Assembly (NCBI GenBank): GCA_016204995.1
Contig: JACQJR010000001.1
Coordinates: 167,793-231,792 of the forward strand
Reading direction: 5' to 3'
DNA from: Candidatus Microgenomates bacterium
GTDB lineage: Bacteria > Patescibacteriota > Microgenomatia > UBA8517 > JACQJR01
DNA: 64,000 nt
The notes beneath the pieces were generated by a model. That model did not search any database and had not been told where the DNA came from. It was given only the letters and a program-made list of their open reading frames with translations. A program made the position numbers and the translations under genes. The first letter of the stretch is position 1. Each line of letters begins with the position of its first letter. Of the stretch, positions 7,728-27,164 are shown piece by piece.

Positions 7728-8866
7728 GTTATTTTTACCTTCCACCATAGTTTAGCCATTTGGACAAGAGTTCGGGGAATCACCATTGGCCGGACTAGCT
7801 CACCCTTAGAGCTACCACCACGGCGTTTATGCCAATGGATGGGTACTTCGGCAAATCTGGCTTTGAGTTTTAAGCATTTATAAGTCATCTCCGGCAAGAA
7901 ATTAGCACTTTTATCCTCCGACTCTATTTTAATTGATTGAACGAGTTGCCTGCGCCAAATTGATACTGTAGAAATTTCGCGGAATTTAATATCAAATAAA
8001 ATTCTGGATAAAAAATGAAATCCCCAGGAGAATATTTTTCGCATTATAGTCTCATTTAATTTTATCCTATAACCAAAAGCACCATCATAACCCCTGACTG
8101 CTTCCAGAAAGTCAGGTAATTCAGTAAAATTAAACTGGCCGTCGGCCGGTGCTAAAAAAATCAGGCGCTTTTTGGCACTGTTAAAACAAGTCCTCATCGC
8201 CCCCGTAAATCCTCTATTTTGTTTGTGATGAACAGCGCGAATGCGTTTATTATTTTTGGTCAATTTATTAATAATTTTATCTGTGCCATCTGTAGAACCA
8301 TCATTAACTAACACAATTTCATAATCCATTTTCATCTTTTGTAAAACAAATTTAGCACTTATGGCTACCTTCTCCAATGTCGCCACTTCATTGAAAGCAG
8401 GGATGACTACCGAAATTGACTCTTTTTCTATCCTTTTTAGAAATTTTTTACTTGAACCTACTACTTTGACAGGAATACCAGCAACAATAGAATAAGGAGA
8501 AATATTAGTAAATTGGGGAACTACTGCGCCGGCTGCCACCACACTATGATGACCAATTTTTGCTCCCATTAAAATTACAGCATTTGAGCCAATAAAACAG
8601 AATTCGCCGATTTCTACTGGCGCTTTCTCTATCTCACTAAACCTTCTTTCGGAAATAGCCCTTTTAACAGTAGTGTGGGTCGTAATTTTGACTCCGGAAG
8701 AGATATCTGTTCCCCGACCTATTTTGAGAGGAGCATAAAGCGCATCAATCAAACAAAATGCCCCAATCCAAACTCGCTCGCCAATTTCCGGCTGGCCTAA
8801 AACCCAGGCGTGTTTATTGTATTTATTTTTGGACAGTCCATGACTTGCAAAATCAAAGACACTCAT
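7670..8866 (-). CDS. Bifunctional protein: N-terminal left-handed beta-helix (hexapeptide) sugar N-acetyltransferase fused to C-terminal GT2 (Dpm1-like) glycosyltransferase
   Basis: Hexapeptide-repeat region IGEFCFIGSNAVILMGAKIGHHSVVAAGAVV...IVAGIPVKVV. This is followed by ISVVIPAFNE...IVLVNDGSTDGT...QNRGFTGA GT2 motifs. Confidence 0.6.
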   Translation of the reverse strand: MSVFDFASHGLSKNKYNKHAWVLGQPEIGERVWIGAFCLIDALYAPLKIGRGTDISSGVKITTHTTVKRAISERRFSEIEKAPVEIGEFCFIGSNAVILMGAKIGHHSVVAAGAVVPQFTNISPYSIVAGIPVKVVGSSKKFLKRIEKESISVVIPAFNEVATLEKVAISAKFVLQKMKMDYEIVLVNDGSTDGTDKIINKLTKNNKRIRAVHHKQNRGFTGAMRTCFNSAKKRLIFLAPADGQFNFTELPDFLEAVRGYDGAFGYRIKLNETIMRKIFSWGFHFLSRILFDIKFREISTVSIWRRQLVQSIKIESEDKSANFLPEMTYKCLKLKARFAEVPIHWHKRRGGSSKGELVRPMVIPRTLVQMAKLWWKVKITYDINSAFWSSCLNLLSAV

Positions 8867-8867
8867 A

Positions 8868-9845
8868 TTACCAACCCAAAGTTCCTTTGATAGATTTTAA
8901 AATTTGCCTGGCTGGCAATCTTTCTCCTGCTACTGTTTCTATTTCTTTAATTCTCAAAATGCTGTCTTTGGTTAAAACATCCACACCCAAATCATTAATA
9001 GCCACAATTCTGCCACAGATTCTACCGGCATAATTTAATGGTGATTTAACTAATTCTGCCTTTTGGATAATGATTTTTTTATCTTCATAAGTAGTGAAAG
9101 CACCAGGATAAGGATCAGATAAAGCGCGAATTAAATTATAAATTTTTAGAGTTGGTAAATTCCAATCTATTCTGCCGTCATCGGGAATTCTAGCACAAGT
9201 ATAGGTAGCCAGTTTTTCATTTTGCTTTTTTCGCCGCGGTGTCCCATTTAACAGTTTAGACAAGTTGCGTATTAAAACTTTAATGGAGGCTGTTTTTGTT
9301 TTCCTATAAACATCAATCGCCGTATCATTAATACCAATCGGTACTTTAATTTGATCAACTAGGTCACCTGAATCCATTCCTTCTGCTAAATAAAATAAAC
9401 TTACTCCAGTTGATTTCTCGCCATTAATGACTACCCAATTTACCGGCGCAAATCCACGATATTTAGGTAAATATGATTCATGTACTGCCACGGATTTATA
9501 TTTAGGAATTTCATAAATTTCCCGAGGAATAATAGTTCGCCAACCCATCACTACTATTAAATCTGGTCTAACTTCTTTTAATAAATTTTTGTCTTCTTCA
9601 GACCTAACAAACTTAGTAATTTTAATGGGAATATGATTTTGATCAGCTAGTGTTTTAATATCATCACAATATTTCTCACGTTCATGGGGATCTTCCGGCA
9701 TACAGAAAATATAGGAAATATTAATGCCCTTGCGAAGAAGTTCTTGCAGACATTCTAAACCCCGATCCCTTCCACCAATAAATACTAATTTTTTATTCTT
9801 TAGATTATTAACTTTTGACATGTTGTAAAATTTGTTTGATAACAT
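8868..9845 (-). CDS. Sugar N-formyltransferase (formyl transferase family, Fmt/ArnA-N-like)
   Basis: HESYLPKYRGFAPVNWVVINGEKSTGVSLFYLAEGMDSGDLV matches the formyltransferase catalytic core HxSLLPxxRG...D. Placed in a sugar-amine context beside a DegT aminotransferase. Confidence 0.65.
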   Translation of the reverse strand: MLSNKFYNMSKVNNLKNKKLVFIGGRDRGLECLQELLRKGINISYIFCMPEDPHEREKYCDDIKTLADQNHIPIKITKFVRSEEDKNLLKEVRPDLIVVMGWRTIIPREIYEIPKYKSVAVHESYLPKYRGFAPVNWVVINGEKSTGVSLFYLAEGMDSGDLVDQIKVPIGINDTAIDVYRKTKTASIKVLIRNLSKLLNGTPRRKKQNEKLATYTCARIPDDGRIDWNLPTLKIYNLIRALSDPYPGAFTTYEDKKIIIQKAELVKSPLNYAGRICGRIVAINDLGVDVLTKDSILRIKEIETVAGERLPARQILKSIKGTLGW

Positions 9846-10938
9846 AATCTTGTTCTAACTTAGTCATCTGAAAATAAAGAGGCAGAATCATGGTCTCTTT
9901 GGTAGCTTTCTCTGTAACCGGTAGGAAGATTTTACCCATAGTTTTAGTGTAAGCTGGTTCCAAATGGGCGGCCATGATACCAAGTCTGGTAGAAATACCA
10001 TCATCAAGCAATCTTTGCATTAATTCGTTTCTGGTTATTTTTTTATTAGGAACGAGTCTCACCATATAAGATTGCCAATTAGTAACATAATTTTCTGGCA
10101 CATATGGGGGGATAATAATATCAGAATTATTAAAAGCCTTATTATAACGCTCTGCTAGACTGGCTCTCCTGACCAGAATCTTGGGAAGTTTTGCCATTTG
10201 AGCTACCCCGACTGCGGCTTGCAGATCAGACATTCTGAAATTATAACCAATTACCGGATAACTCTCTTGGATGATCTTATTTGATTTGTGTCTGGCTACG
10301 TCAGAAATTGACATACCTTGATGCCTTAAAATTCTTAACTTTTCCGCCCAAGTTTTATTGTTAGTTAAAATCATACCACCTTCGCCGGTAGTAATAGTTT
10401 TTCTGGGATGAAAACTTAAACAGGCCAGGTCGCCAAAACTGCCAATTTTTCTACCTTTATAGACGCTGCCTAAAGCACAGGCGGCATCTTCCACTACATG
10501 CAGTTTATATTTTTTGGCAATTTTTAAAATTTTATCCATATCAGCTGGCAGACCGATTTGATCAACCGGAATAATGGCGCGGGTTTTTTTGGTAATTAAT
10601 CTTTCAATTTGAGTCGGATCTATGTTATAAGTTCGCGGATCAATATCGGCAAAAATGGGAGTCGCGCCAACATGTACTGCCACATTGCTAGTCGCAATAA
10701 AAGAAAAAGACGGAACTATCACTTCATCAGCGGGGTCTATTCCTAAAAGATGCAGACTAAGAAAAAGGGCGGTGGTAGCTGAAGTAGTAGCAACCGCATA
10801 TTTGGCCCCGGTATATTCACAAATCAAATTTTCAAATTCTGCCACTTTGGGACCTTGAGTCACCCAGCCAGACTGAAGGACCTTGGCCACAAGTCTTTCC
10901 TCCGACTTGTCAAAAACTGGTTTAGTGATGGGAATCAT
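9808..10938 (-). CDS. DegT/DnrJ/EryC1/StrS family PLP-dependent sugar aminotransferase
   Basis: MIPITKPVF...GWVTQGPKVAEFE...ATTSATTAL. Start chosen at the internal ATG (complement 10938), which gives an ATGA overlap with the upstream gene. The ORF-track start was 10980. Confidence 0.8.
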   Translation of the reverse strand: MIPITKPVFDKSEERLVAKVLQSGWVTQGPKVAEFENLICEYTGAKYAVATTSATTALFLSLHLLGIDPADEVIVPSFSFIATSNVAVHVGATPIFADIDPRTYNIDPTQIERLITKKTRAIIPVDQIGLPADMDKILKIAKKYKLHVVEDAACALGSVYKGRKIGSFGDLACLSFHPRKTITTGEGGMILTNNKTWAEKLRILRHQGMSISDVARHKSNKIIQESYPVIGYNFRMSDLQAAVGVAQMAKLPKILVRRASLAERYNKAFNNSDIIIPPYVPENYVTNWQSYMVRLVPNKKITRNELMQRLLDDGISTRLGIMAAHLEPAYTKTMGKIFLPVTEKATKETMILPLYFQMTKLEQDYVIKQILQHVKS

Positions 10939-11915
10939 CTCTGCGCAGCAGCTTTTTGGGATTTTGCTTCCTTCCTCCACTTAATTAATCTTCTCAATCC
11001 CTCGCTTAAAGATATCTGGGCCTTAAACCCTAAATCTTTCTTAGCTCGCCGAGTATCAGCCTTCCTTCTTTCCACATTGGTAAATTTCCGAGGAGCTTCG
11101 TGAACAATAGCTAATGGCGATTTGGTTAATTGAAGCACTTTTTTAGCCAAAGTATTCAGGCTTGTCTCCCTTCCGGATCCCACATTATAGAAACCTTCAT
11201 TAATTTTGCTTTTTAGAGCACAAATAGTAGCGTAAGCAATATCTTCCACGTAGATAAAATCAAGCGATTGTTTGCCATCACCAAAGATTACGGGTGACAG
11301 TCCTTGATCTATCCGATCCAACCACCTTATTAAAACCTCGGTGTAAACGCCAAAAATATCCATTCTGGCGCCATAGGCATTAAACGGTCTCAAACAGACA
11401 TAATTTAAGCCGTACATGGCTCGGAAAGCTCTAGCCATTTGCTCGTTAGCGATTTTAGCTGCTCCATAAAGAGTTTCGTTGTTGTAAGGGTGATTCTCAT
11501 CCATCGGTACGTATGAAGGATTACCATAGACTGAAGCCGAAGAATTAAAAACTAATTTCTTTACCTTATGTTTGGCGCATGCTTCCAGCACATTAAAAGT
11601 TCCGTCCACTAAAATTTCATTACATAAACGAGGGTCTTCTGCGCATTGCGTAATCCTTATTACTGCTTCATGAATGACATAATCTGCGCCGCGAACTGCC
11701 CTATCAACTGTTTTAGGATCCCTAATATCTCCAGTAATTATTTTTACTTTTTTACTTTTTAAAGCTTCTTGTAAATTTTCTCTTGTCCCTCTGGTAAAAT
11801 TATCCAATACTGTAATTTTGCCAACTTGGTTCTTATAACTTTTAAGTATATAGTCAATTACCCAAGAACCAATAAAGCCTGCTCCGCCAGTAACAACGAA
11901 ATTAAGTTTTGCCAT
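10935..11915 (-). CDS. NAD-dependent epimerase/dehydratase (SDR family; UDP-sugar 4-epimerase/4,6-dehydratase-like)
   Basis: VTGGAGFIGSWV Rossmann motif. YGAAK catalytic YxxxK. Confidence 0.75.
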   Translation of the reverse strand: MAKLNFVVTGGAGFIGSWVIDYILKSYKNQVGKITVLDNFTRGTRENLQEALKSKKVKIITGDIRDPKTVDRAVRGADYVIHEAVIRITQCAEDPRLCNEILVDGTFNVLEACAKHKVKKLVFNSSASVYGNPSYVPMDENHPYNNETLYGAAKIANEQMARAFRAMYGLNYVCLRPFNAYGARMDIFGVYTEVLIRWLDRIDQGLSPVIFGDGKQSLDFIYVEDIAYATICALKSKINEGFYNVGSGRETSLNTLAKKVLQLTKSPLAIVHEAPRKFTNVERRKADTRRAKKDLGFKAQISLSEGLRRLIKWRKEAKSQKAAAQR

Positions 11916-13020
11916 TCTTAAAAAACTCCTTAATTTTTCTGCATATATACATTACTTCTTTTTTAGTTAATTCTGGAAACATGGGGAGTGATAAAATCTC
12001 ATTAGCATATTTTTCCGTAAGGGGAAAATCACCATTGGTGTATTTTAAACCCTCCATGGACTTTTGTAAATGCACGGGGATAGGATAATGCATCCCGGCA
12101 AAAATATTATTTTGATGCAAAAAGTTTAGTAATTCATCCCGCCTCTCTGTTCTAATAACATATAGGTGGTGATTAAGAATTCGCATTTTGTCAGAAAGAG
12201 GCGGCAAAAATAAAGGTAAACCGGTTAATAAATCATGATATAATTTAGCAATTCTTCTTCTTTGGGCATTCCAACGCTCCAGTTTTTTTAACTTAACATT
12301 TAGATAGGCCGCATGGACTGTATCAAGCCGACTATTATAACCAATAAGGTCGTGTTTATATTTAGCTGCCTGACCCACATTTCTTATTATGCGAACATTA
12401 TTAGCCAAAAGGTCATTATTAGTAACTATGGCCCCGCCATCCCCAGCCGCTCCCAAATTTTTACCGGGATAAAAGGAAAAAGCTGCTATGTCACCAAAAG
12501 AACCACACTTTTTGCCAGCCAGCGAAGACCCATGCGCCTGACAAGCGTCTTCTAGAATATATAATTTATGTTTTTTTGCAATTTTTAAAATTGCCTTCAT
12601 CGAGGCAGGAGTACCGTAAAGATGAACTGGAATAATAACTTTAGTTTTGCGTGTAATTGCTTTTTCAATTAATTTAGGATCTATCTGATAAGTATCAGAA
12701 TCACAGTCAACCAAGACCGGCTTTGCCCCTAAATAAATAATTGGCAAAACTGTGGCAATGAAAGTGTTAGCAACCGTAATAACTTCGTCCCCTGGTGCCG
12801 TACCAAGAGCCCGCAATGACAGAAGTAAGGCATCTGTACCTGAAGCCACTCCGATACAATGTTTAACTCCGCAATATTTAGCAAAATTTTTCTCAAAATC
12901 AGCCACTTCCTCGCCCAAAATAAAATTTCCTTTAGCCAATATTTTATTAACCGCGGAAGGAATATCCTTTTTCAAAGTTTTATATTGTCTTTGTAAATCA
13001 ACTAATTGAATTGCCTTCAT
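11902..13020 (-). CDS. DegT/DnrJ/EryC1/StrS family sugar aminotransferase (WbpE-like candidate)
   Basis: Typical DegT N-terminus and PLP-fold motifs (GVASGTDALLLSL). Confidence 0.8.
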   Translation of the reverse strand: MKAIQLVDLQRQYKTLKKDIPSAVNKILAKGNFILGEEVADFEKNFAKYCGVKHCIGVASGTDALLLSLRALGTAPGDEVITVANTFIATVLPIIYLGAKPVLVDCDSDTYQIDPKLIEKAITRKTKVIIPVHLYGTPASMKAILKIAKKHKLYILEDACQAHGSSLAGKKCGSFGDIAAFSFYPGKNLGAAGDGGAIVTNNDLLANNVRIIRNVGQAAKYKHDLIGYNSRLDTVHAAYLNVKLKKLERWNAQRRRIAKLYHDLLTGLPLFLPPLSDKMRILNHHLYVIRTERRDELLNFLHQNNIFAGMHYPIPVHLQKSMEGLKYTNGDFPLTEKYANEILSLPMFPELTKKEVMYICRKIKEFFKNGKT

Positions 13021-13021
13021 A

Positions 13022-13459
13022 TCATTTTCTTAAAACCCTGCCGGGATTACCTATTACCACGGCTCCATCTGGAACGTGACGAATTACCACGGCTCCAGCG
13101 CCAATTATAGAATTTTTACCAATCCTCACCGGCAAAATTGTCACATTTGATCCAATTCTAACATTATCTTCAATGAAAGTATTTTTCATTACCCAATTTT
13201 TTGTATTCGGTGAATCATATAAATCATTAATAAACATAACCCCATGGGCTATAAAAACATTGTCACCAACAGTTACGCCTTCGCAAATAAAACTATGACT
13301 GCTAACTCGGGAATTTTTTCCGATCGTCACATTTTTTTGTATTTCCACAAAGGGACCCACAAAAACATTATCACCCAAAACACAACCGTATAGATTCACT
13401 AAATCTGGATAGGGTATTTTAACATCTTTACCCAGCTTAACAGTCTTATCTACGGGCAT
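13022..13459 (-). CDS. Hexapeptide-repeat sugar N-acetyltransferase (WbpD/PglD-like)
   Basis: Left-handed beta-helix repeats VGDNVFIAHGV..IGSNVTILPVRIGKNSIIGAGAVV. Start set at the internal ATG (MPVDK) to remove a 59-nt overlap. The ORF-track start was 13504. Confidence 0.7.
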   Translation of the reverse strand: MPVDKTVKLGKDVKIPYPDLVNLYGCVLGDNVFVGPFVEIQKNVTIGKNSRVSSHSFICEGVTVGDNVFIAHGVMFINDLYDSPNTKNWVMKNTFIEDNVRIGSNVTILPVRIGKNSIIGAGAVVIRHVPDGAVVIGNPGRVLRK

Positions 13460-14465
13460 GATCAAAAACCACCTTTCTGCCAGTCCGGGCCGACTTAGTA
13501 GCACTTTCTAGAATTTCCACAATTTGCGCCCCGAATGTACCGCTACTTTTTGGTTCTTTCCGTGTTTCAATGGCATTTAAAAAATCTTGGACTAGTAGAG
13601 AAAGAGGCTCTACCACATTAACTTTAGGCAACCAGACATCTCCTGTTCTATAGCCTATTTTGGCATCCTCCAATTCTCTTAATTTTTTAGGAATGATTAC
13701 TCCTTTATCATAAATCCGTACTTTTTCTGTAGGCTCAATATCGTCATAAACAATCATTTTTTTAGTACCAACGATTAGCATCCGACGTATTTTAGCCGGA
13801 GATAGCCAACTGATATGAACAGATGCAGAAATATTTTTGAGATATTCAGCAAAGACATAAGCCACATCTTCATGCTGTCCAAAATGGACTCTTCCATGTG
13901 CATAAACACTTTTAGGATGAGCGCCTAATAAATAATTGATTATGGAAAAATCATGCGTAGCTAAATCAAAAATTACATTAGAATCTTTTTGGAAAAGACC
14001 CAAGTTTACTCTGACTGAATCAATATATAAAATATCACCTAGCTCTTTGCCATCAATTATCTCCTTAATCCTAGTTACTGCATCGTTAAAAAGAAAGGTA
14101 TGATCAACCATTAAAATACGTTTATGTTTTCTAGCTACTTTAACTAACTGCCAAGCATGGGAGCAGTCTAAAGTCATGGGTTTTTCAATTAAAACATCCT
14201 TGCCGTGTTCTGCGGCTTTTTTGGCTAGAGGAAAATGAGTGATTGTAGGGGTTGCTAAAACAATACCATGAATAGTGGAATCTTTAACAACCTGATCAAA
14301 ATCTGTTGTTACTTCAATAGAAGGATATCTTTTTTTAACGGCCTTTAATTTATTTTGGTCCTTATCACAACAATAAACTACCTCGCATCCCGAATTGTCA
14401 AAAAGATTACGCAGTAAATTAGGACCCCAATATCCATAACCCACCAAAGCAACGCGCTTATCCAT
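13446..14465 (-). CDS. Gfo/Idh/MocA family oxidoreductase (WbpB-like)
   Basis: VALVGYGYWGPNLLRNL Rossmann N-terminus and EKPM motif. Adjacent to aminotransferase and acetyltransferase genes, as in UDP-2,3-diacetamido sugar pathways. Confidence 0.7.
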   Translation of the reverse strand: MDKRVALVGYGYWGPNLLRNLFDNSGCEVVYCCDKDQNKLKAVKKRYPSIEVTTDFDQVVKDSTIHGIVLATPTITHFPLAKKAAEHGKDVLIEKPMTLDCSHAWQLVKVARKHKRILMVDHTFLFNDAVTRIKEIIDGKELGDILYIDSVRVNLGLFQKDSNVIFDLATHDFSIINYLLGAHPKSVYAHGRVHFGQHEDVAYVFAEYLKNISASVHISWLSPAKIRRMLIVGTKKMIVYDDIEPTEKVRIYDKGVIIPKKLRELEDAKIGYRTGDVWLPKVNVVEPLSLLVQDFLNAIETRKEPKSSGTFGAQIVEILESATKSARTGRKVVFDHARR

Positions 14466-14534: not shown

Positions 14535-14885
14535 TCACTTCTTTAAAAAGTAAATTATTAATCCAACAACTAAAAATCCATATACATAATTACCTAATAA
14601 TTCCGCGCTTTCATATTCCCCTAAAAAAATTAGCAATAGAGATATAAACAATAGTAAAAATATCGCCAATAAGATTATTTTTATACTTAGCTTAAAGATA
14701 ATCATAAAAGATGCCATAATCATAAATAGAATTAATTCTTTTTTAATATAGAGATTAAAATAGGGAAGAGTTGGTAAAAGATAAAATAAACCCAATAAAA
14801 AAACAAAACCAATAACTTGATGGCGATTAGTAATAATTTTTTTAAAAAAATATTGTTCCAATTTAACTAACTTATATTTTTTCAT
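14535..14885 (-). CDS. Small hydrophobic membrane protein (hypothetical)
   Basis: Three predicted TM segments. Start set at the internal ATG (MKKYKL), which gives a 4-nt overlap with the upstream giant gene. Confidence 0.3.
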   Translation of the reverse strand: MKKYKLVKLEQYFFKKIITNRHQVIGFVFLLGLFYLLPTLPYFNLYIKKELILFMIMASFMIIFKLSIKIILLAIFLLLFISLLLIFLGEYESAELLGNYVYGFLVVGLIIYFLKK

Positions 14886-17800
14886 TGGCGTTTTCTTCTT
14901 TTTAACAAATATATAAAAATTCCCAAAAATGATATACAAAACACTGCTATACTGATTAAAGCCCCCACATAAAAAGCCTTTTGAGGGAAATATTCTATCA
15001 CAAACTTACCAGTGCCTAAACTATCCACCTTCCATCCATTGGCATAACCATCAACTATAAAATGATTTGAAATAATTTTGTTACTTTTAGAAAACAAACC
15101 TTTTATTAAACCAAAAGGATTATTTTGTCCCTCATCTGAATTACTTATCTCTCTTAATCTCCATAATTTATCAAATCGCTCATTAAAAATTAATATAAAA
15201 GGCGTCGCTGATCTTTGTAATTGTAATTCATATCTAGTAGGGTTTTTCTTATCATAATCGACAGATGGCGCTTTAATGGAAAATTTCTTATCACTTTCAT
15301 TATTTAATACTACAAATGGAGAAAATATCTCTTCTGCAGTCACATTATCAATTTGAGGTTTTTCCTTATTCTCATTGCAAACATAAATATTGAGATATTT
15401 TGAATTAATAGAAGGATAGTAAATGTAAGTAAATGGCTGATAGTTTAGTATCGGATAAATACCTAATTCTCGCTGCCCTTTTATGAAATACTGTAATTGA
15501 GGATCTTCTTTATTATCCTCCCTTACAAAAAGTTTAAGTGCCTGATCCTTACGGGAAGCACTAATTCTGACTTTATAAAAAAGACTGCTATCAAATCTTT
15601 CAATGCTTCCATAGTAACAAGATATGGTTCCACTCGGGGACTGCTCTAATTTATAACCGTGGGACTTAAAGATATTTGGCAAATTATCAAATCTAACAAC
15701 TAAGGTAAATGCACCGATCAGACCAGGAGGCGATTCCATATGGATTATATCCTCACTCTTTTTAATTATCTTGAGTGGCCACTCTTTATTTTCTTGGGTT
15801 AATGTTGCCGTTTTGGGATAAATCCGCTGGCCATCGGTATCAAAAGGTAAAAAATGAGTACTAATAAATAAGCCGTCTGAATTTTTTTCTGTTAGATTAA
15901 CATGAAATACTTTTTCATTTCGCCATTTATTTTCGTCATTTAATATTGGTGTATAAAAAGTCTTAATTCTATAAATTTGCCAAAGCACATCGGTTAAACC
16001 TTGAATAACATTTTCGCCAAAAGTGCCAGATCTAGCTTTGTCTAACTCTATGCGAAGATTTATCTCAATTGGGTTAAGGATTTGTATAATCATGCGCGCT
16101 TTCTCAAAATCCTCTTTGGGATCAGAGGTTGATGACAAAAGCTGATGAGTAATTACTAAATAATCATTCATCATTTTTAATGATCCTATCAAATATTTCT
16201 CTCGCTCACGAAAATCCAACATATTTTTTACTTCGCCTGCTCTCCGTAAAGTTGCTCCTAAATAAACATTGATTTTTTCTTTGTCATTAGTGGCTAGAAG
16301 CAATTCCTTTTTTTCTCTGATTTTTTTTAATAAATAAAGAGGGGAATTAGGTAGAACCCTCACTTTGGGTAAATCTGCATTTGTTTCTATATTTTCTATC
16401 AGACAAGACTCACATTGATAATATGTGAGTTCTGCAGAGAATAAATCTCTGGGGATATTATTTGATTTAGATTCTTTTTGGGGAACTAAAAAAATATTAC
16501 TATTAGAAGCAAATGATCTATAAAGAAAAGGGTAATTTTGGGGAATAGCCACCAATGACGATATAGCATAAATCTTTTTATTAAACTCTGAATCAATTTT
16601 ATAAATGGTCCATTCCCCGAAAATTTTTGCTTTCTTGATATGAATCAATGAGCTTAAAATATTTTCAAATTTTTGAGGCGATTTTAAACTGAATAAATGG
16701 TCATCTGCTAAAATATCATTTCTCACTAAGAAAAAATTTATTCCTAGTCTTGATGATAAATTTAATATCTTTTCTTCTTTATCGCCTTGCTCTATAGACA
16801 AGTAAAGCTCCTGTAACCAATTTCTCTCTTCCGGACTTAAACTGGCATCGTTTGCCAGAGTATTTTTAAAAGTTAACATTGACGGCAAGGTAGATAAACT
16901 CCAATATCCCCAACTATAGCTATCTACTTTCCAACCTTCGTCCAGTGATGGTAATAATAAAATCCTCCCATTGGTATAATTATTATCTGCCCAATTTTTA
17001 AAATCCTGGACATAATCGGGAATGTGTACCTTAGTTGTAGCGGACTTTTGCCAATACAAAACTTGAGGAGAAAAAAGCGGTTTATAATACCATAGCCACC
17101 CCCCGATAATAATGATGGTTAAAAATAAAGTAGAAATAGATTTTAAGCCGTCATTCTTAATGAAACTTACTATTTTAATTGAACAAATAGACAAGGTAAA
17201 GCCAATTAGGACGCTCATGCTTAAAAAGAATGTTGATCCGAATTTATAAAAAGGGGTTCTAAATATAACAAACCCCGGTACCTTATCATATAAAAAATCG
17301 TATATGAAACCCAACGGAGGATGAGTTCCGGCCATAAAAATTAAGACGACAACAATTAATAAGACAAAAAAAGAAATTAATCTTCTCTGTATAGTTGTTT
17401 TTACTAATAGTAAAGATGAAAATGCCAATACAGGAAAAAGAAAGCTAACAGCAATTAATGTTTGATCTTTAAAATAGGCCTCCGCATACGGATGATTGAG
17501 ATTAATATTGTATTGATCAGTATACCAATCTGGTATACCTTGTAGTCTAAACATATTAATGAATGAAGAAGACTGGCTGATATAATTAAGCCAAGATTTA
17601 TTAGGGACAGTAATACTTTCATTAAAAAAATTTGATAGATCGCCATAAAATAATTTAACTAAATATGGAAGAATGGCATAACTATTTATCAATATGTAGC
17701 CTACTAGGGTTAGAACTAAGAAGGTTAACAATTTATAAACCTGCTCAAACTTACGTGTTAAAAATCCCCAGATGGTGGTGTACAGCAAAAGCACTAACAC

Positions 17801-18421
17801 CATGACTATTAAACCACCATATAATGGCAAACCCCAAATACTGCCGCCGTTAAAAACAAAAAATATAATAGCGGATAGAATGGCTGCTAACAGAATCTCC
17901 ATCTTTCTTGTCAATACTCTCAAGGAAATAGCTAAAAAAATCAGCGTAGCAGATAATAATCCATATTTGGCCCGTTCTAGCATAAAAATTGATTGGAAAA
18001 CATAAAAATTAAAAGTTATGAAAACTGGAAAAATAAAAACAAAAACTTTGCCAAAATTATCTTTGACAGAAAAAGCAAAAACTAATGCTGAAGAGAAAAG
18101 TATTGCCAGCCAGAAAAAGATGAGCAGATAATTACCAGCCGCCTGGTTGCCAGCCAGAATAGTTAAAATATAATCTATAACGTGCAGAGTAATACTGCCA
18201 AAGTTAACTGCATTATCTTGACCAAAATTAAGATGATCATCCCAAGCATAAAAACGACTATTTAAAAATTGTTTTGCATCAAGTGCCAAACCGGAATCAT
18301 GACCAGCTAAAACAAATCCCTCTGGCAGCCAGGACTTAGTTAAAAACCAAAAACCAATTAGGGCAAAGATTAGATAAACTGTGCATAAAGATAAAAATTT
18401 ATTCTTTTTAATTAATCTCAT
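14882..18421 (-). CDS. Giant (1179 aa) polytopic membrane protein, GT-C-like (YfhO/AftD-like architecture) with large extracytoplasmic domain and C-terminal TM anchor
   Basis: About 12 N-terminal TM helices. The first loop, AGHDSGLALDAKQFLNSRFYAWDDHLNFGQD, is acidic-rich. A roughly 650-aa soluble region follows. A terminal TM helix is followed by KRRKRQ. Confidence 0.5.
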   Translation of the reverse strand: MRLIKKNKFLSLCTVYLIFALIGFWFLTKSWLPEGFVLAGHDSGLALDAKQFLNSRFYAWDDHLNFGQDNAVNFGSITLHVIDYILTILAGNQAAGNYLLIFFWLAILFSSALVFAFSVKDNFGKVFVFIFPVFITFNFYVFQSIFMLERAKYGLLSATLIFLAISLRVLTRKMEILLAAILSAIIFFVFNGGSIWGLPLYGGLIVMVLVLLLYTTIWGFLTRKFEQVYKLLTFLVLTLVGYILINSYAILPYLVKLFYGDLSNFFNESITVPNKSWLNYISQSSSFINMFRLQGIPDWYTDQYNINLNHPYAEAYFKDQTLIAVSFLFPVLAFSSLLLVKTTIQRRLISFFVLLIVVVLIFMAGTHPPLGFIYDFLYDKVPGFVIFRTPFYKFGSTFFLSMSVLIGFTLSICSIKIVSFIKNDGLKSISTLFLTIIIIGGWLWYYKPLFSPQVLYWQKSATTKVHIPDYVQDFKNWADNNYTNGRILLLPSLDEGWKVDSYSWGYWSLSTLPSMLTFKNTLANDASLSPEERNWLQELYLSIEQGDKEEKILNLSSRLGINFFLVRNDILADDHLFSLKSPQKFENILSSLIHIKKAKIFGEWTIYKIDSEFNKKIYAISSLVAIPQNYPFLYRSFASNSNIFLVPQKESKSNNIPRDLFSAELTYYQCESCLIENIETNADLPKVRVLPNSPLYLLKKIREKKELLLATNDKEKINVYLGATLRRAGEVKNMLDFREREKYLIGSLKMMNDYLVITHQLLSSTSDPKEDFEKARMIIQILNPIEINLRIELDKARSGTFGENVIQGLTDVLWQIYRIKTFYTPILNDENKWRNEKVFHVNLTEKNSDGLFISTHFLPFDTDGQRIYPKTATLTQENKEWPLKIIKKSEDIIHMESPPGLIGAFTLVVRFDNLPNIFKSHGYKLEQSPSGTISCYYGSIERFDSSLFYKVRISASRKDQALKLFVREDNKEDPQLQYFIKGQRELGIYPILNYQPFTYIYYPSINSKYLNIYVCNENKEKPQIDNVTAEEIFSPFVVLNNESDKKFSIKAPSVDYDKKNPTRYELQLQRSATPFILIFNERFDKLWRLREISNSDEGQNNPFGLIKGLFSKSNKIISNHFIVDGYANGWKVDSLGTGKFVIEYFPQKAFYVGALISIAVFCISFLGIFIYLLKRRKRQ

Positions 18422-19458
18422 AGTGATTTTTCTTTATAACTTTTCAAATTGCCTAAGAAAGTATAAAAATGATACCCAAGGGGGACATTTTTGGAGATAA
18501 TCGGGAAAAATATTCTATCATCAATGGTGCGAATTTTACTTTGAATAAAGTACCTTTTGCGTAAAGTCGCGCTAATATTAATTAAATTCCAGAGTATGGC
18601 TTTTTTAATCGCCCAAGCAATACTAAATTTCCGTCGCAATAAATACATGACTAAAACTATCTCACATAAAAATAAGTGCCAAAGAAAAATTTTAAATAAA
18701 TTTATCGCCCCTAAATTTTTTAGGTAGGAATTAATCCTATTCTTGAATGAGTGATATTGAACGAAAGAATTATCTAGTTTACTACTAGTGGCACCGATTT
18801 TATGATAAATTTTAGAGGAAGGGACAAAAGCAATTTTATATCCGGCCATCCAAACCCGATGGCATAAATCAGTTTCTTCAAAATAGGCAAAATATCGGCT
18901 GTCAAAGATTTCTTTATCCACCTTCACTTTTTCTAACACTTCTCTTTTAAAAATCATCGCTGCGCCTTTGGCTGAATAAATATCAATCTGCCGATCGTAT
19001 ATCTTTGAATCTTTTTTGGCAAAACCATAATGATAAAGAAAACCACTGCTCGTTAAGAATGAACCAACTGCATCAAGTCTTTCTTTATCATCCATAAAAA
19101 ATATTTTACTTTGCACTCCTCCTATGCTTAGATCTGAATTTAGAACCCTTAATAAATTGATTAGGAAGTTATCAGTAACATAAGTATCATTGTTAAGAAA
19201 AAGAATATATTCACCCTTTACAACTCTATAACCAATATTGTTGGCTTCAGCAAAACCTAGATTTTTTTTATTGATAATAATAATGGTTTTAGGGAAGTTT
19301 TTCTTAACATATTCTACCGAACCATCCATAGAGGCATTGTCAACTAAAATTACTTCTATCTTTTTATACTGTTGTTTAAAAAGGGACGGCAAACATTTTT
19401 CTAAGTGAGCCTTTCCATTCCAATTAACAATAATGATAGATACTAGTTTTTTATTCAT
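18418..19458 (-). CDS. GT2 family glycosyltransferase (WbbL/rhamnosyltransferase-like)
   Basis: VSIIIVNWNG...VILVDNASMDGS...LGFAEANN. Confidence 0.75.
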   Translation of the reverse strand: MNKKLVSIIIVNWNGKAHLEKCLPSLFKQQYKKIEVILVDNASMDGSVEYVKKNFPKTIIIINKKNLGFAEANNIGYRVVKGEYILFLNNDTYVTDNFLINLLRVLNSDLSIGGVQSKIFFMDDKERLDAVGSFLTSSGFLYHYGFAKKDSKIYDRQIDIYSAKGAAMIFKREVLEKVKVDKEIFDSRYFAYFEETDLCHRVWMAGYKIAFVPSSKIYHKIGATSSKLDNSFVQYHSFKNRINSYLKNLGAINLFKIFLWHLFLCEIVLVMYLLRRKFSIAWAIKKAILWNLINISATLRKRYFIQSKIRTIDDRIFFPIISKNVPLGYHFYTFLGNLKSYKEKSL

Positions 19459-19463
19459 TGTGC

Positions 19464-21664
19464 TTATGGTCCAAGAAATTCTATATCATCTAGATAAAAT
19501 GTACCGCTGTTTTTTGTACCAATCATATTAAAGGACAGTATAGCAAAGCGGGCATCGGGCGGAGCTTTGGCAGTAACTGATATTTTATACCATTTAGATT
19601 GACCGAAAACTCTAGGTGATAAAGCTATCACCTCTCCTGGTAAATTAATATTGGCATCTTCCTTGTTAAAGAAATCTATCCGTAAAAACCCATCGCGTTC
19701 TACCTCATTTAAAAATCCCACTGGTTTTAACCAACCAGTTAAAGTATAAACCTCTGATGGCGTAACAGAAATTTTTGGACTCATTAGTCTAGGACCGCGA
19801 TAATAAATATTTTCTAAATCATACTCTAAAGAGCCTTTTCCACTATGTCCTTCCTTTAAACTAAAAGAAATATTAATTTTACTTTTATTACCTAATTCCT
19901 CTAAACGCCAAAAATCTTTTTCTTGTTCTTTATCAAAAGAAAATCTTTTAATTAAGTTATTAGCCGTTGGCAAAGAAGTAGGCAAGGCAGAAAAATACAA
20001 GCCAGACATGTCACACATACTATCTCTAGTAAAACTTTTTAATAAGTTTGCCCGACTAAAATATTCCCTCATTGCTAAAGTAACATAATAATTTTGGTAA
20101 AGAGGTTGGGGAATAATAAAAAAATTATTTTCAAACATATAAGTAAAACGTGATAAAATCCCAGTATTAATAAAAAAATAATCAAACTTTCGCTCTTGTA
20201 GTTCTGTTAAAAAGAAATCTGTATCAGGCCTCACTTCCGTAACTTGATAAGATTTTTTGGGTAAGGCAATGGGAGAAACTTGGGCTATTTTTTTATCAGC
20301 TGAAATATTTTCGTTAATCCATTTAACGCTAAATTCATCAGGGCTTACCCCACCGCAAGACCAACTACTAACAACAGAAGTTGTGATTGGGTGATAAAGA
20401 ACCAACCCTGATATGACAAAAAATATCATCATGACATTAACCCTCTTTTTAATTATTTTTCCCAAATTATCCTTAAGATTTAACAAAAAAATAGCCGCGA
20501 ATATTGATAAAAATGGCACCAGTGGTAAATTCAACCTTTCATAAACCGCTGGTATATAAAAAGAGTTATAGATAAAGGTAAATAGAGGAATAATTAGTAA
20601 AAATAAAGTTTTTTTAAGATGACGAAATAAAGATAAAAAAATCCCCCCAATTGATACTAAAGCTAAACCTGGCCCTAAAACTCGAAAGATTAAAAATGAT
20701 GAATGAAATTCTTTAAATCCAGTAGGAATAAGAGTTGATAAACTAGGAATACTAGACTTACCGCCTGAAGAAATATAAGATAGGATAGACGTCATAAAAG
20801 CCGTTATAGAAGTCCCATACCATAAAAACTGAGCTCCAGCTTCTTCTTGCAGAATATGACGACTATCGGCACTAAAGAATAAGTATGGCACACCAATAAA
20901 TATTCCCACGGGAATGGCGAGAAGTCCCAAAGAAAATTTTGATAGTCTTTTTGATAATTTATCTTTATCTAAAAAAATAACAAATGGATAAGCAAGAAAA
21001 GCCAAAGGAAAATATTTTATAGTAGAGGACAAACCAATCAAAAAACCACTAGCCAAATACCATTTCAGGCGGCTAGTAGTTACAGCTTTAACCATAAAGA
21101 GTAATGATAAAAGGATGAGAAAGATAAATGAAACATCGGTGGTAATATAATGAGAATCCCTGACATGCAAAGGGTTTAAGGCGAAAATTAAAGCTGATAA
21201 AAAACCGATTTTTGGATTAAATAATTTTTTAGCGATTAGATAAACGATCAAAACGCTTATTGTGCCAATTATGGCTGTCAATGCTCTACCCTCTAAGAAA
21301 GATAAGGAATTGATATCACTAGTTACATATTCAATAAAATCTATGGCTTTGTTATTGAATGATGTAGGCGGAGGTTGAGAAATTTTTAAATTGGTTAAAA
21401 TTATCCCGATAATCCAAAAGGGAATGTAAACTAAAGATTGTAAATAAAAAATCCAAGAACCATATTTATAAGCATGCGGCTCAAAATCTCCATTTGTAAT
21501 AATGTTATAAAAAAGGGCTTTCGCATGTTTTATAATATAAGCCTCATCTGTATGGGCAATATTAGGAACTAGACCGATAAAGCGAACCAGTAGGGCAACA
21601 GCAAGAATGATAAATAAAAGCTTATTATTTTTTAAAGCACGCCGAATTCCCCTCATTAGCATTA
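19464..21664 (-). CDS. GT-C glycosyltransferase, PMT/ArnT-like (group A) with C-terminal CBM-like beta-sandwich domain
   Basis: The loop-1 motif AHTDEAY carries the conserved Asp-Glu. NPLHVRDSHY follows. About 12 TM helices. C-terminal GFLRIDFF...W.K...APP...F...YLDDIEFL is shared with 24921..27164 and 32236..34386. Start placed at MLMRG (complement 21664). The ORF-track start was 21803. Confidence 0.6.
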
Positions 21665-21711
21665 GGCGTATTATACTAGATTTTAATCGTGTATAATATC
21701 TAACATAAATT

Positions 21712-22779
21712 ATGCCAATAACAAAAACTAGTTTAGTTTCCTGTGTAAAAGTAAAAGTTGGAAAAGATCCTAAATTAGTTTTTAAGGCTGTTGCCCAAGC
21801 CATGAAGCTTGCGCATTGGGAAAAATATGTTAAGGGGCGTAATATTGTTTTAAAAGTGAATGTGGTGTGGGATAAACTTTACCCTAGTTGTACTACTACT
21901 CCCATGGTAATAGAAGGAGTCATAAAAACATTGCTCCAGAAGTTTCCCAATGCTAAAATCACCATTGTTGACACCGATACTCCTGGAATCATGCATGCCC
22001 ATTACTCCTTTAGGAATTTAGGTATTAATTACATGGCTAAAAAGTACGGCATCAAGACTGTCAATCTTACCAATACCAGCTTCCGCACCGTCAACCTTAA
22101 CGGCGAAAAACTTAAAAAATTTAAAGTAAGTAAAGTTCTACTTGATGCAGATACAATTATTACCATTCCCGTGATGAAGACCCATTCTATCTCAACAGTA
22201 TCATTGAGTCTTAAAAATCAATGGGGATGTATTCATGATTTAAGACATAACTTTCATCTCTATTTAGCCAAAGCCATCGGGGACGTAAATAATTTTTATA
22301 AAAAGAAGGTTTCGTTTGTAGTTATGGACGGATTATTTGGCATGGAAGGGAAGGGCCCAAAGAATGGAAAACCAGTTAAGGTAGGATTTATTTTTGCTTC
22401 ACCTGACCGCGTAGCTCTTGATACTCTGGTTGCCCAATCCATGGGGTTTGACCCCCAAAAGGTTGATCATATAACTCATTGCCAAAACTTAAAAATTGGC
22501 ACTATGAACTATAAAATCGTTGGGTCAAAACCACCCAAGATGAAATTTGCCAGTCCCCATGATTTTCAGTTAACCTTTTGGGTAGAAATGTTTTTGAGAA
22601 AACTTGGGCCATTTTATGAAAAATTATTTTTCCAAACGAATATTCTTTACCCTTTACGCCTGGCAGCCAGAGTATACAATGACATTTGGTACTATTTTAT
22701 TGGAAGTAAAAACAAGGACAGGATGATGAAAACAGATTTTGGTCAGATGTGGCAAGAATACTTAAATAATGCTTCTTGA
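21712..22779 (+). CDS. DUF362-like domain protein (hypothetical)
   Basis: [21 protein letters not shown] resembles the conserved DUF362 core. Confidence 0.35.
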
Positions 22780-24920: not shown

Positions 24921-27164
24921 GTGAGGAGAAAAATTAGATACTTTGCCGACCAAATTTTTAAAAAGAAAAAGGCAATAACATTAATCTTTATCTTAGGGCT
25001 AAGCCTTAGGCTTCTAGGTACCTATCCCGGTTATCCCCTCACCCATCCTGATGAATCAACTATCCAAACTGCCTCTATTGAAATTGCTTTTAAGGGCAAT
25101 TTCTTAACCAAGGCTTATTATTACGGACAGTTGTTACCGCTTATTTATGCCTTTAGTTACCTTTTTTACCTTCCTCTAGCAGCTATTTTCTTTTTACCTA
25201 ATCTTATTACCACTCGGGGTCTAAATCATTTCGGAGAAGAATTTTATAAATTTCTTACCCAAGGTTTCCCTCTACACCAACAAACATTTTGGAGTGTTAA
25301 TTATTGGGCAAGGTACGATAGCGCCATTATTAGCTCTTTAACTATTATTGTTGCCTACTTATTGGGAAAAAAATTATTTAATAAACATATTGGTTTAACA
25401 GTTGCCTTTTTAATTGCTATTAATTACCGACATGTTTTAAGCAGTAGATTAATTTTAGCTGATGCACCGGCAGCCTTTTTTGCGATACTGGCCGTTCTTT
25501 TATTTACTAGGCTTTTACAAAAAACATCTTTAAAAAACTATCTTCTAGCTGGTGTGGGTTTGGGTTTATCCTTATCTGTAAAATATTTTATTTATGTCAT
25601 TCCGGCTTTTTTATTATGCCATCTTTCCTCTTCCTTAAAAACAAAAGGGAATGTGTTAATAAGATTGGTAAAAGTTATTACAAATTATAAATTATTTTTA
25701 TCAGTTCTTACGGCAGTAATTTTACTATTAATTATTAATCCCTATTTTTTATTTGCCCAAAAAGAAGCCGCTTATTATTGGATAGCCAATTCTGCCAGAT
25801 ATGGCTTAAGATTTTCTCTAGAGACACTGCAAAATAATAATTTTTCCTTCTACTCTCTTTACTATTTATTTTATTACGGCTTAAGTCCAATCATTAGTAT
25901 TCTTACTATCTTAGGCTTTATCTGGAGCTTTATTCGTTATCCTAAGGCAGCATTGATTATCTCTATTGTTATCATTCCCTATCTTTATACTTTTTTAGTA
26001 ATTTCTGGAACAGGCATTGTCAGAAACTATGCTGCCATTATTCCGCTTCTATTATTTTTCCCTGCTGTAATTATTGCTGACTTAATTTTATTTTTGCACC
26101 GAATTAAATTTTCTACCATCATTATCACCTTATTAATCTTAACTATCGGCTACCAATCATTAAAATATAGTCTAACTAGCGGATATTATTTGACTCAAGA
26201 GCAAAATATGATTTCTCTTTACAAGTGGATGGATAAAAATTTACCAGAGGATAGCAAAATTATTGGTTCAAGTGGCATCTTCTATCCTGCTGGTCGTAAT
26301 TTTGAGGGAATTAAATTAGATGTCAATTTAAATAACCTAATGAGTATGGAAGAGTTGCAAGAGCAACCAACTCCCTGGCTTATTTTTAGTTCTATCCCTC
26401 AAGATGTGACAGAAAACTTTCTATTGAATAATGAAATTGCCAGAAAATCTTTTATCAGCAATTTCTTGCCTTCATATCTTACTAATAATACTTATAACAC
26501 TCTAGTCTTTAAGGAGCTAGCAGATTTTAGGGTAGCAGAATTTGCCAAACCTTTAACTCAAGATCCCCCATTTATGGTAATTAAAATCCCGCAGTTTGAC
26601 CAAGCTAAAAAAGAGACAACAGTAGCCAGATTTAAATTTACTAACTCTCAACAATTAAATAATTGGTCTTATAATTTCTATCCTACTGATACTTATCAAT
26701 ATACATATGAAAATGGCGTTGTTAATTTCACCCAAAAAACTCCTCAATGTAATACTTTACTTACCCAACTATCTTCAGATAAAACTTATATTATCCCAAA
26801 CCAATGGTATAGCCTCAAAGCTTTAGCCAAACGACAAGCTAATAGTATTTACCAAAGAGCCAGGAATGGATTTTTTAGATTAGATTTTTATGACGGAAAT
26901 GACAATTTAATTAAAACCTATGTCACTCATCCACTTAATTCTAATGTAGGCTGGCAGAAACTATCGGCTGCCGGAATTGCACCGCCGTATGCTACTTATG
27001 CCAAAATTACCTTTCAGATTGATGCCTGTTTTGAGGAAGAAAGCTATAGCTTTAATAACATCACTCTTTTTACTACTAAACAAATACCTAGTATTGACAC
27101 AACCACCTATCATTTCTATATGCAACCCGCGCCTAGTAGTTTTTACTGGTTACCCCAACTTTAA
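24921..27164 (+). CDS. GT-C glycosyltransferase, PMT/ArnT-like (group A) with C-terminal CBM-like domain
   Basis: Loop-1 motif THPDEST. AINYRHVLSSRL. Multi-TM. C-terminal FFRLDFYDGND...GWQKL...APPYATYAKITFQ. GTG start. Confidence 0.6.
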   Translation: MRRKIRYFADQIFKKKKAITLIFILGLSLRLLGTYPGYPLTHPDESTIQTASIEIAFKGNFLTKAYYYGQLLPLIYAFSYLFYLPLAAIFFLPNLITTRGLNHFGEEFYKFLTQGFPLHQQTFWSVNYWARYDSAIISSLTIIVAYLLGKKLFNKHIGLTVAFLIAINYRHVLSSRLILADAPAAFFAILAVLLFTRLLQKTSLKNYLLAGVGLGLSLSVKYFIYVIPAFLLCHLSSSLKTKGNVLIRLVKVITNYKLFLSVLTAVILLLIINPYFLFAQKEAAYYWIANSARYGLRFSLETLQNNNFSFYSLYYLFYYGLSPIISILTILGFIWSFIRYPKAALIISIVIIPYLYTFLVISGTGIVRNYAAIIPLLLFFPAVIIADLILFLHRIKFSTIIITLLILTIGYQSLKYSLTSGYYLTQEQNMISLYKWMDKNLPEDSKIIGSSGIFYPAGRNFEGIKLDVNLNNLMSMEELQEQPTPWLIFSSIPQDVTENFLLNNEIARKSFISNFLPSYLTNNTYNTLVFKELADFRVAEFAKPLTQDPPFMVIKIPQFDQAKKETTVARFKFTNSQQLNNWSYNFYPTDTYQYTYENGVVNFTQKTPQCNTLLTQLSSDKTYIIPNQWYSLKALAKRQANSIYQRARNGFFRLDFYDGNDNLIKTYVTHPLNSNVGWQKLSAAGIAPPYATYAKITFQIDACFEEESYSFNNITLFTTKQIPSIDTTTYHFYMQPAPSSFYWLPQL

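Follow-up and report, generated by a model that had tools for sequence, protein, structure and literature searches.

Which step in the assembly of a cell surface might be served by the largest gene of a locus from a bacterium that is known from its DNA? The question is raised by a stretch of 64,000 nucleotides (nt) from a Candidatus Microgenomates bacterium (contig JACQJR010000001.1 of assembly GCA_016204995.1, positions 167,793 to 231,792; here termed the window), in which a gene at positions 14882..18421 of the reverse strand encodes a protein of 1179 amino acids (aa). Microgenomates-group bacteria are ultra-small and uncultivated. An original prediction, made from the letters of the window alone, had described the product as a giant membrane protein reminiscent of the arabinofuranosyltransferase AftD, and had proposed that it may be the scaffold or priming enzyme of the system. 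Here, we find that it is probably an active GT-C membrane glycosyltransferase of the AftD superfamily, which would act with a small subunit of four transmembrane (TM) helices, depend on a polyprenyl-phosphate-linked sugar, and meet both its donor and a polymeric acceptor outside the membrane. It is most likely a late-acting, outer-face transferase for a surface glycan made by the 64-kb gene island in which it lies, and not a priming enzyme or a scaffold. The result is a homology-based annotation of a known enzyme class; a two-chain arrangement of the enzyme and its small partner is flagged as testable.

Reading frame, topology and relationship to AftD

The gene is a single uninterrupted open reading frame (ORF) that starts with ATG, and as the longest ORF of the window (the runners-up measure 832, 823 and 813 aa) it is the largest gene of the locus, as had been claimed. 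At the G+C content of the window (about 31%), about 7.8% of random codons would be stops, and simple arithmetic from base composition gives a chance probability of about 1e-42 for an open frame of 1179 codons. At NCBI, the identical protein is listed as hypothetical protein HY404_00955, from a metagenome-assembled genome of Candidatus Microgenomates.

Hydropathy and an AlphaFold2 (AF2) model built on a 42-sequence alignment (pLDDT 85.9, pTM 0.78) place 11 TM helices within residues 8-445, followed by a soluble stretch of 699 aa (residues 446-1144), a last TM helix at 1145-1172 and the terminal residues LKRRKRQ. This is the predicted layout of an N-terminal TM bundle, a big outside domain, a final TM helix and KRRKRQ, except that the domain measures about 700 aa and not about 650. 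Counts of Lys and Arg agree with the positive-inside rule, putting both termini inside, and external loop 1 (EL1, 66 aa), EL4 (74 aa), EL5 (25 aa) and the big domain outside. Within the family alignment, the cysteine pair C935/C1015 co-varies perfectly (both present in 44 sequences, neither in 6), and C670-x-x-C673 is invariant. The large domain is placed outside the membrane because all three observations fit: the charge distribution, the co-varying pair and the invariant C-x-x-C. The parts of the gene are as follows.

14882..18421, minus strand: AftD-like GT-C glycosyltransferase gene, 1179 aa, HY404_00955
17057..18421, minus strand: GT-C membrane core, residues 1-455, with 11 TM helices and the N-terminus inside (hydropathy, AF2 helices, positive-inside rule, global profile alignment to AftD 1-580 at E 7.3e-7)
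18131..18328, minus strand: EL1, residues 32-97, with invariant G40, D42, W60, G67, G75 and H80, of which D42 is the candidate catalytic Asp (invariant columns; aligns with AftD EL1, 45-77)
17243..17329, minus strand: EL5, residues 365-393, with the FRTPFYKF motif and invariant R388 and K393 (most conserved segment, 63% identity)
16352..17056, minus strand: periplasmic GT-C alpha/beta domain, residues 456-690, with the DxYxWGYWSL motif and invariant C670-x-x-C673 (hhalign to AftD 436-567, secondary structure, conservation)
15917..16351, minus strand: helical bundle, residues 691-835, of five long helices, lineage-specific, DUF5667-like and not present in AftD
14990..15916, minus strand: beta-sandwich region, residues 836-1144, with the C935/C1015 pair; residues 1061-1144 are homologous to the membrane-proximal beta-sandwich of AftD (AF2 strands, Cys co-variation, hhalign)
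14882..14989, minus strand: C-terminal TM helix, the equivalent of AftD TM12, and cytoplasmic KRRKRQ tail (hydropathy, AF2)

The relationship to AftD emerges from family models, profiles and fold. The only Pfam family matched above threshold is PF11847, GT-C_AftD (formerly DUF3367), at residues 308-605 with an E of 7e-7; DUF5667 matches residues 689-742 below the Pfam threshold, and an NCBIfam scan gave no match. Among 42 diverse homologues, PF11847 is matched by 23 at E<=0.01 (best E 1.4e-12) and DUF5667 by 18; no other Pfam family, including YfhO, PMT and STT3, is found in these 42. A search of PDB sequences with the single 1179-aa sequence returned no meaningful match, and a family profile was required: the 42-sequence profile, run against all PDB sequences, puts AftD (6W98, 6WBX) at the top with three collinear stretches, namely EL1, the periplasmic domain and the C-terminal end. 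For profile-profile alignment (hhalign), a 50-sequence family alignment was set against mycobacterial AftD. The AftD comparison set comprises 80 mycobacterial aftD loci, and residue numbers refer to the AftD protein of locus L007, which has all twelve residues of the AftD structure paper at their published numbers. Residues 467-603 align locally with AftD 436-567 (probability 91.8%, E 7.4e-7) and residues 1061-1178 with AftD 1190-1284 (probability 91.2%, E 1e-6; a region also matched by hmmsearch), while the N-terminal 620 residues align globally with AftD at E 7.3e-7. When the AF2 model is compared with the PDB by Foldseek, the three AftD entries lead (E 1.6e-14 to 6.6e-14) and are followed by STT3 (E 7e-6 to about 1e-5) and ArnT (E 4e-4); identity to AftD in the structural alignments is about 10-14%. 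On this model, the 1179-aa protein is a GT-C-fold protein whose nearest solved relative is AftD. A PF11847 search, a fold comparison and a topology prediction had been set beforehand as checks on the AftD idea, and it passed each of them: the proposed GT-C core with AftD-type architecture is borne out by the sole Pfam match, by AftD as the top structural match by a wide margin, and by significant profile-profile alignment of the periplasmic GT-C domain and of the C-terminal beta-sandwich with its anchor helix.

The same comparisons bear on whether the protein could be an oligosaccharyltransferase (OST)-like enzyme, which would transfer a Wzx-flipped polyprenyl-diphosphate glycan en bloc to a protein (S-layer or pilin) or to another acceptor. 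STT3 comes next after AftD in the fold comparison, no STT3-family model matches the protein, and OSTs (STT3/PglB/AglB) are not its best structural match. The other solved GT-C enzymes (STT3/AglB/PglB, ArnT, Pmt1/2, AftA and the ALG enzymes) are clearly weaker matches than AftD, and the 1179-aa protein has no Pfam or NCBIfam match to their families. We regard en bloc transfer of this kind as quite improbable.

With AftD (Rv0236c and the Mycobacterium abscessus enzyme; PDB 6W98, 6WBX and 6WBY) the 1179-aa protein shares an 11-TM GT-C core, where OSTs and ArnT have 13 helices, a periplasmic alpha/beta GT-C domain, a membrane-proximal beta-sandwich with the motifs (N/D)xxW and (N/D)G(W/Y)xxGW, and a single re-entry helix (TM12) followed by a stretch rich in Arg and Lys. 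Invariant W1087, N1128 and W1130 match NPGW and NGWQQGW of AftD. In loop motifs, too, the two are alike: W...FGQ...G...H of AftD EL1 corresponds to W60, F66-G67-Q68, G75 and H80, R...W of EL4 to R292...W299, and R357...K361 of EL5 to R388...K393. They differ in that the 1179-aa protein belongs to another phylum, is about 230 residues shorter and has no counterpart to about 590 residues of AftD that hold the carbohydrate-binding modules CBM1-3, having instead a CxxC-bearing extension, the five-helix bundle and other beta-sandwiches. It also ends where AftD, after VRRKT1285, goes on into a loop and the TM13-16 bundle that binds acyl carrier protein (ACP). In AftD, CBM1-3 bind arabinan and the TM13-16 bundle binds the phosphopantetheine of ACP.

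The comparison with AftD had been extended to very large lectin-like domains, and this part fares less well: the 1179-aa protein has no Pfam match to a CBM or F5/8 family and no hhalign match to AftD at about 600-1190 (CBM1-3), and Foldseek aligns its ectodomain only weakly (E 0.006-0.2) with jelly-roll or discoidin-type domains. A lectin function, suggested by these modelled folds, is plausible but unproven. The soluble region had been described as free of recognisable motifs; it can now be explained in part as a GT-C alpha/beta domain, a DUF5667-like bundle and beta-sandwiches. A stand-alone DUF5667 protein of 201 aa, of the same domain type as the helical bundle, is encoded elsewhere in the window (60946-61551, minus strand; E 3.5e-10), and a similar gene lies near the AftD-like gene of a Blackburnbacteria locus (L001:13802-14362).

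The small four-helix partner

On either side, the 1179-aa gene is joined to a neighbour, the three genes being chained by ATGA overlaps.

14535..14885, minus strand: small partner gene (HY404_00950) for a protein of 116 aa with four TM helices; the start codon lies across the stop of the 1179-aa gene (caATGAaa)
18418..19458, minus strand: upstream GT2 glycosyltransferase, 346 aa (PF00535, E 2.9e-24); its stop overlaps the start of the 1179-aa gene (ATGA)

The small product is identical to HY404_00950; four helices are predicted in it, and both of its termini are basic. Its linkage to the big gene is general: an ORF of 97-159 aa begins about -31 to +120 nt from the stop of the big gene in 59 of the 62 loci with a complete big gene, and in the remaining three the contigs end too early to show a downstream ORF. 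The small products (52 distinct sequences) align and have the motifs (L/I)PY(F/I/L/V)N(L/V) and AE.(L/I)G..(I/V)Y in common. An iterative hidden Markov model (HMM) search, seeded with the window protein only and run against 1,362 ORF segments of 53 non-redundant loci, recovered the adjacent small ORF wherever the stop of the big gene is followed by 330 nt or more, that is, in all of 51 such loci. Five diverse small proteins gave no Pfam match at E<=1, GtrA (PF04138) and SMR/ArnE-type flippases included; profiles of the small proteins matched no PDB sequence, and the AF2 single-sequence model of the 116-aa protein (pLDDT 70.8) has a best Foldseek E of 1.7, with AftD not listed. Further ORFs of 74-100 aa with two TM helices and the motif WIFFTAERL correspond to the latter half of the small-protein profile (E 1e-10 to 1e-14) and are found some 3 kb downstream from the big gene in five loci.

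L162:12674-12931, short WIFFTAERL ORF
L156:12544-12795, short WIFFTAERL ORF
L152:12665-12967, short WIFFTAERL ORF
L138:12057-12320, short WIFFTAERL ORF
L126:12177-12407, short WIFFTAERL ORF

Once among the sequences surveyed, the two types of protein are joined in one chain. A 1008-aa ORF (L142:5214-8240, plus strand) carries the small module (aa 27-113, E 9.6e-15) at the N-terminus of a second and shorter AftD-like paralogue, the rest of which matches the TM8-TM11/EL5 and C-terminal regions of the big family. This is the only big/small-type fusion found, a single 'Rosetta stone' case; no fusion of big and small protein was seen among the best 150 family representatives, 17 database homologues of the small protein and the 62 big genes of the fetched loci. 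Because of the gene linkage and this fusion, we infer that the small four-TM protein is an integral subunit of the GT-C enzyme, where it could be a stabilising or regulatory membrane module or could deliver the donor. In mycobacteria, the TmaT-AftD and ACP-AftD complexes provide a precedent for an AftD-type enzyme with a partner that contacts its TM domain, although neither of these partners, an AT3-type acyltransferase (TmaT) and a soluble protein (ACP), resembles the 116-aa four-TM protein.

A more specific arrangement would be an obligate two-chain GT-C enzyme, in which the small protein packs on the core and takes the place of the AftD TM13-16 bundle, the part that couples AftD to ACP in mycobacteria. 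Several features fit: the 1179-aa protein ends at the boundary between AftD TM12 and the bundle; the small protein is N-in, four-TM and C-in, with a basic N-terminal linker of about 20 residues; and the gene pair is universal in the loci examined, with the module fused in L142, though at the N-terminus of a paralogue. The small protein shows no sequence or fold similarity to AftD TM13-16, and the support is thus positional and topological. A direct derivation from AftD, as a split-off TM13-16 bundle, was rejected: hhalign of the 52 small proteins against AftD 1285-1410 gave a probability of 0.1%, and Foldseek gave no match to AftD. An obligate two-chain enzyme of this specific kind is rather unlikely; if true, it would mean that the AftD family possesses a detachable module, regulatory or donor-handling, that is fused in Actinobacteria and separate in bacteria of the candidate phyla radiation (CPR).

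The chain of GT2, GT-C and four-TM genes also recalls three-component systems of the YfhO/GtrC type, in which a GT2 makes a polyprenyl-phosphate monosaccharide, a GtrA-like four-TM flippase turns it over and a GT-C decorates a wall polymer. The size and TM count of the small protein are those of GtrA/ArnE-type flippases, and functionally such a system would be a special case of the enzyme proposed here. The Gtr and CsbB-GtcA-YfhO systems share with this locus the gene set of GT2, GT-C and small four-TM protein and, likely, the overall logic, in which a polyprenyl-phosphate sugar is used to decorate an envelope polymer on the outer side of the membrane. The differences are that neither the big nor the small proteins match YfhO (PF09586) or GtrA (PF04138), that the GT2 is not a conserved neighbour and that the small protein belongs to a new family, which lacks the membrane-embedded acidic residue of the SMR/ArnE type. 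A GT2 of the 18418..19458 type lies directly upstream of the big gene in 6 of 38 related loci only, which removes it as an obligate partner, and the best NCBIfam scores of the upstream GT2 are to HpsN and rhamnosyltransferase-type models and not to ArnC/GtrB. For the small protein, identity as a GtrA or SMR flippase was discarded for want of a Pfam match. A true three-component system of this type is therefore improbable, on the points just given.

The YfhO comparison had a further root, in loop 1. The quoted loop, GHDSG...YAWDDHLNFGQD, is present at residues 40-69, and its supposed resemblance to YfhO-type loops is not upheld: YfhO (PF09586) is not matched by the 1179-aa protein at E<=1 or by the 42 homologues at E<=0.01, and the loop aligns instead with AftD EL1 through W60, F66-G67-Q68, G75 and H80.

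Conserved loops and the proposed reaction

Conservation across the family peaks in EL5 (63%) and then EL1 (44%), and is at its minimum in the helical (25%) and beta (24%) domains. None of the 50 sequences departs from G40, D42, W60, R388, K393 or W299; in the alignment with AftD, K393 falls on K361, an essential residue, R388 on R357, and W299 on W272, which is 100% conserved (LRGTDSW272 in AftD). This is the pattern expected, from sequence, of an active GT-C enzyme with a fast-evolving, acceptor-binding ectodomain. Because conservation peaks in the active-site loops EL5 and EL1, a working enzyme is preferred to a scaffold.

The alternative of a catalytically dead scaffold, or a 'priming' organiser of the glycan machinery, has in its favour that this is the largest protein of the locus, that its big ectodomain and helical bundle could mediate protein contacts, and that mycobacterial AftD forms membrane complexes with TmaT and ACP. 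Against it stand the centring of conservation on the GT-C active-site loops, with the ectodomain least conserved, and the fact that the AftD complex itself requires the catalytic residues of AftD. Lipid-linked glycans are primed by phosphoglycosyltransferases at the cytoplasmic face, not by GT-C enzymes, which act late, on the outer face and with lipid-linked donors; a priming role is unlikely for this reason. The suggestion that the protein is the scaffold or priming enzyme of the system is accordingly given up by us as improbable in the extreme.

For the enzyme that we prefer, knowledge of other GT-C enzymes allows a reaction to be proposed. A polyprenyl-phosphate-linked sugar would be bound at the outer-leaflet membrane interface, as in other GT-C enzymes, in a donor site formed by EL1 (invariant H41-D42, R56 and W60), the TM3-TM4 loop (E149-R150-x-K152), EL4 (R292, W299) and EL5 (R388, K393). 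D42, with H41, is the likely catalytic or acceptor-activating group; K393 and R388 are likely phosphate binders, perhaps together with R150 and K152. The ectodomain of about 700 aa would hold the polymeric acceptor that receives the sugar. The donor is probably made by an ArnC/AglJ/DPM-like GT2 of the 64-kb island and need not be arabinofuranose, and the product would be an elaborated cell-surface glycan.

Several observations weigh against this proposal. The PF11847 match of the 1179-aa protein is marginal (28.0 bits against a cutoff of 26) and covers profile positions 257-543 of 661 only. The AftD structure paper names K39, D41, E251, K361 and D474 as essential active-site residues of AftD, and among these only K361 has a clear invariant counterpart (K393). 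AftD D41 aligns with G44, the invariant D42 lying two residues upstream, at the position of AftD K39, while the residue opposite E251 is not conserved and the one opposite D474 is L509; the alignment register between the two families is uncertain in the loops. The small protein, by its sequence a new family, has no detectable similarity to known families, and its putative role as a subunit is drawn from gene linkage and the single L142 fusion.

Some of these points bear equally on whether the protein could be a functional AftD orthologue, that is, an arabinofuranosyltransferase with decaprenyl-phospho-arabinofuranose (DPA) as its donor, by which an arabinan is branched or extended. AftD is the closest solved structure and the sole Pfam family matched, and the beta-sandwich/TM12 module and the EL1 and EL5 motifs are held in common. 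Yet identity in structural alignments is low (see above), the arabinan-binding CBM1-3 and the ACP-binding TM13-16 are not present, E251 and D474 are not conserved, and no genes like UbiA-type phosphoribosyltransferase or DprE1/DprE2 occur in the 64-kb window and four annotated related loci (the rest of the genome was not searched). Neither arabinogalactan nor lipoarabinomannan has, to our knowledge, been reported from CPR bacteria, which likewise speaks against orthology. Because CBM1-3 and TM13-16 are absent and only K361 of the five essential residues is clearly kept, the 1179-aa protein is placed, on its sequence, in the PF11847 superfamily outside the AftD orthologues; that it nevertheless performs the AftD reaction is highly improbable.

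The glycan island and the wider family

By its gene content, the 64-kb window is a glycan-biosynthesis island. It contains at least eight GT-C genes of the PMT/PMT_2 type (two score below the Pfam cutoff), a set of short GT2 genes and a block for the modification of sugar nucleotides.

19464-21803, PMT/PMT_2-type GT-C gene
24921-27164, PMT/PMT_2-type GT-C gene
32236-34386, PMT/PMT_2-type GT-C gene
36823-38256, PMT/PMT_2-type GT-C gene
47964-49106, PMT/PMT_2-type GT-C gene
49103-51172, PMT/PMT_2-type GT-C gene
51174-53162, PMT/PMT_2-type GT-C gene
58913-60937, PMT/PMT_2-type GT-C gene
5403-6104, short GT2
27133-27885, short GT2
46505-47263, short GT2
7670-8866, short GT2, fused
29584-30846, short GT2, fused
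8868-14465, minus strand: sugar-nucleotide modification block, Arn-like

For a CPR bacterium with a small genome, eight PMT/PMT_2 genes beside the AftD-like gene amount to an unusually high density of outer-face glycosyltransferases. Four of the five short GT2s have NCBIfam matches that include ArnC, AglJ, dolichyl-phosphate hexose transferase and PpgS, all well below curated cut-offs (46505-47263 was scanned by Pfam only), and of the two fused ones, one is joined to a hexapeptide acetyltransferase and the other to a methyltransferase. These ArnC/AglJ-like GT2s could plausibly supply the GT-C enzymes with lipid-linked donors. The block at 8868-14465 encodes an ArnA-N-like formyltransferase (245 bits to PRK06988), two DegT/ArnB/PseC-like aminotransferases, an epimerase/dehydratase, a hexapeptide acetyltransferase and a UDP-GlcNAc 3-dehydrogenase-like oxidoreductase, a content that suggests formylated or acetylated amino-sugar donors. 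Within it, the ORFs 13022-13504 and 13446-14465 overlap by 59 nt, and the true start of the upstream gene is probably an internal codon.

The window also holds GT4s, methyltransferases and a GDP-mannose dehydratase; no match to UbiA, DprE1/2 or Wzx was found among its genes. Related loci carry genes for GT4, GT2, a Wzx-type flippase, methyltransferases and sugar-nucleotide enzymes. An 823-aa fusion (55298-57769, minus strand) of a PglF-like 4,6-dehydratase (Polysacc_synt_2, with a CoA-binding N-terminus) and a DegT-type aminotransferase would, from its domains, lead to a 4-amino-4,6-dideoxy sugar within one polypeptide chain. Radical-SAM proteins are encoded at 3227-4318 (minus strand) and 30988-32199 (plus strand), and one of the two has a SPASM domain. 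The products of 34391-36832 and 38253-40751 (both minus strand; 813 and 832 aa) each have an F5/8-type-C (discoidin) domain near residues 560-700, and neither matches the HMM of the big family; the PDB entry of AftD is itself named 'F5/8 type C domain-containing protein'.

The family to which the 1179-aa protein belongs is large. Searched against 1.84 billion cluster representatives (50% identity clusters), its profile finds 10,527 clusters at E<=1e-3, a figure that counts what is detectably related and may include AftD or other GT-C enzymes besides this clade, 6,624 at E<=1e-10 and 1,877 at E<=1e-30. The best 150 representatives are nearly all of 1000-1200 aa, with a few fragments of 514-892 aa. 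All named members come from the Microgenomates group (Microgenomates, Blackburnbacteria and Woesebacteria), and the small partner is found in Levybacteria as well. A literature search on this clade, on CPR GT-C enzymes and on DUF3367/DUF5667 in CPR bacteria found nothing relevant.

After the small ORF, at least 25 of 53 related loci carry a second AftD-like paralogue (500-885 aa), which matches the TM8-TM11/EL5 and the C-terminal beta-sandwich/TM regions of the big family; the genes of '841-881 aa, no Pfam' beside Wzx in Woesebacteria and Blackburnbacteria are such paralogues. Examples are the following, with about 20 other loci besides.

L003:11898-14552, second AftD-like paralogue
L006:11940-14564, second AftD-like paralogue
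L156:10047-11639, second AftD-like paralogue
L126:9608-11224, second AftD-like paralogue

No second paralogue was found in the window. The 543-aa multi-TM protein at 27882-29513 (minus strand) was considered as a short AftD-like paralogue and rejected (hhalign probability 6%); it has no Pfam match, adjoins an AglJ-like GT2 and has homologues (E to 1e-120) in 13 of 53 related loci.

AftD has been regarded as an enzyme of Actinobacteria that takes part in assembling arabinogalactan and lipoarabinomannan, and the structure paper traced its homologues across Actinobacteria only. What is new here is a large clade (about 1,900 clusters at E<=1e-30), with all of its named members in the CPR, that combines the GT-C core and the C-terminal module of AftD with an ectodomain of another kind, has no ACP-binding bundle and is linked to a small membrane protein. 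AftD-type enzymes would thus seem to serve generally in the building of complex surface glycans, and not to be a mycobacterial speciality. Bacteria of the CPR depend on surface contact with their hosts, and the family offers a handle on their almost unknown envelope glycobiology, as well as natural 'domain-swap' variants with which the accessory modules of AftD may be probed.

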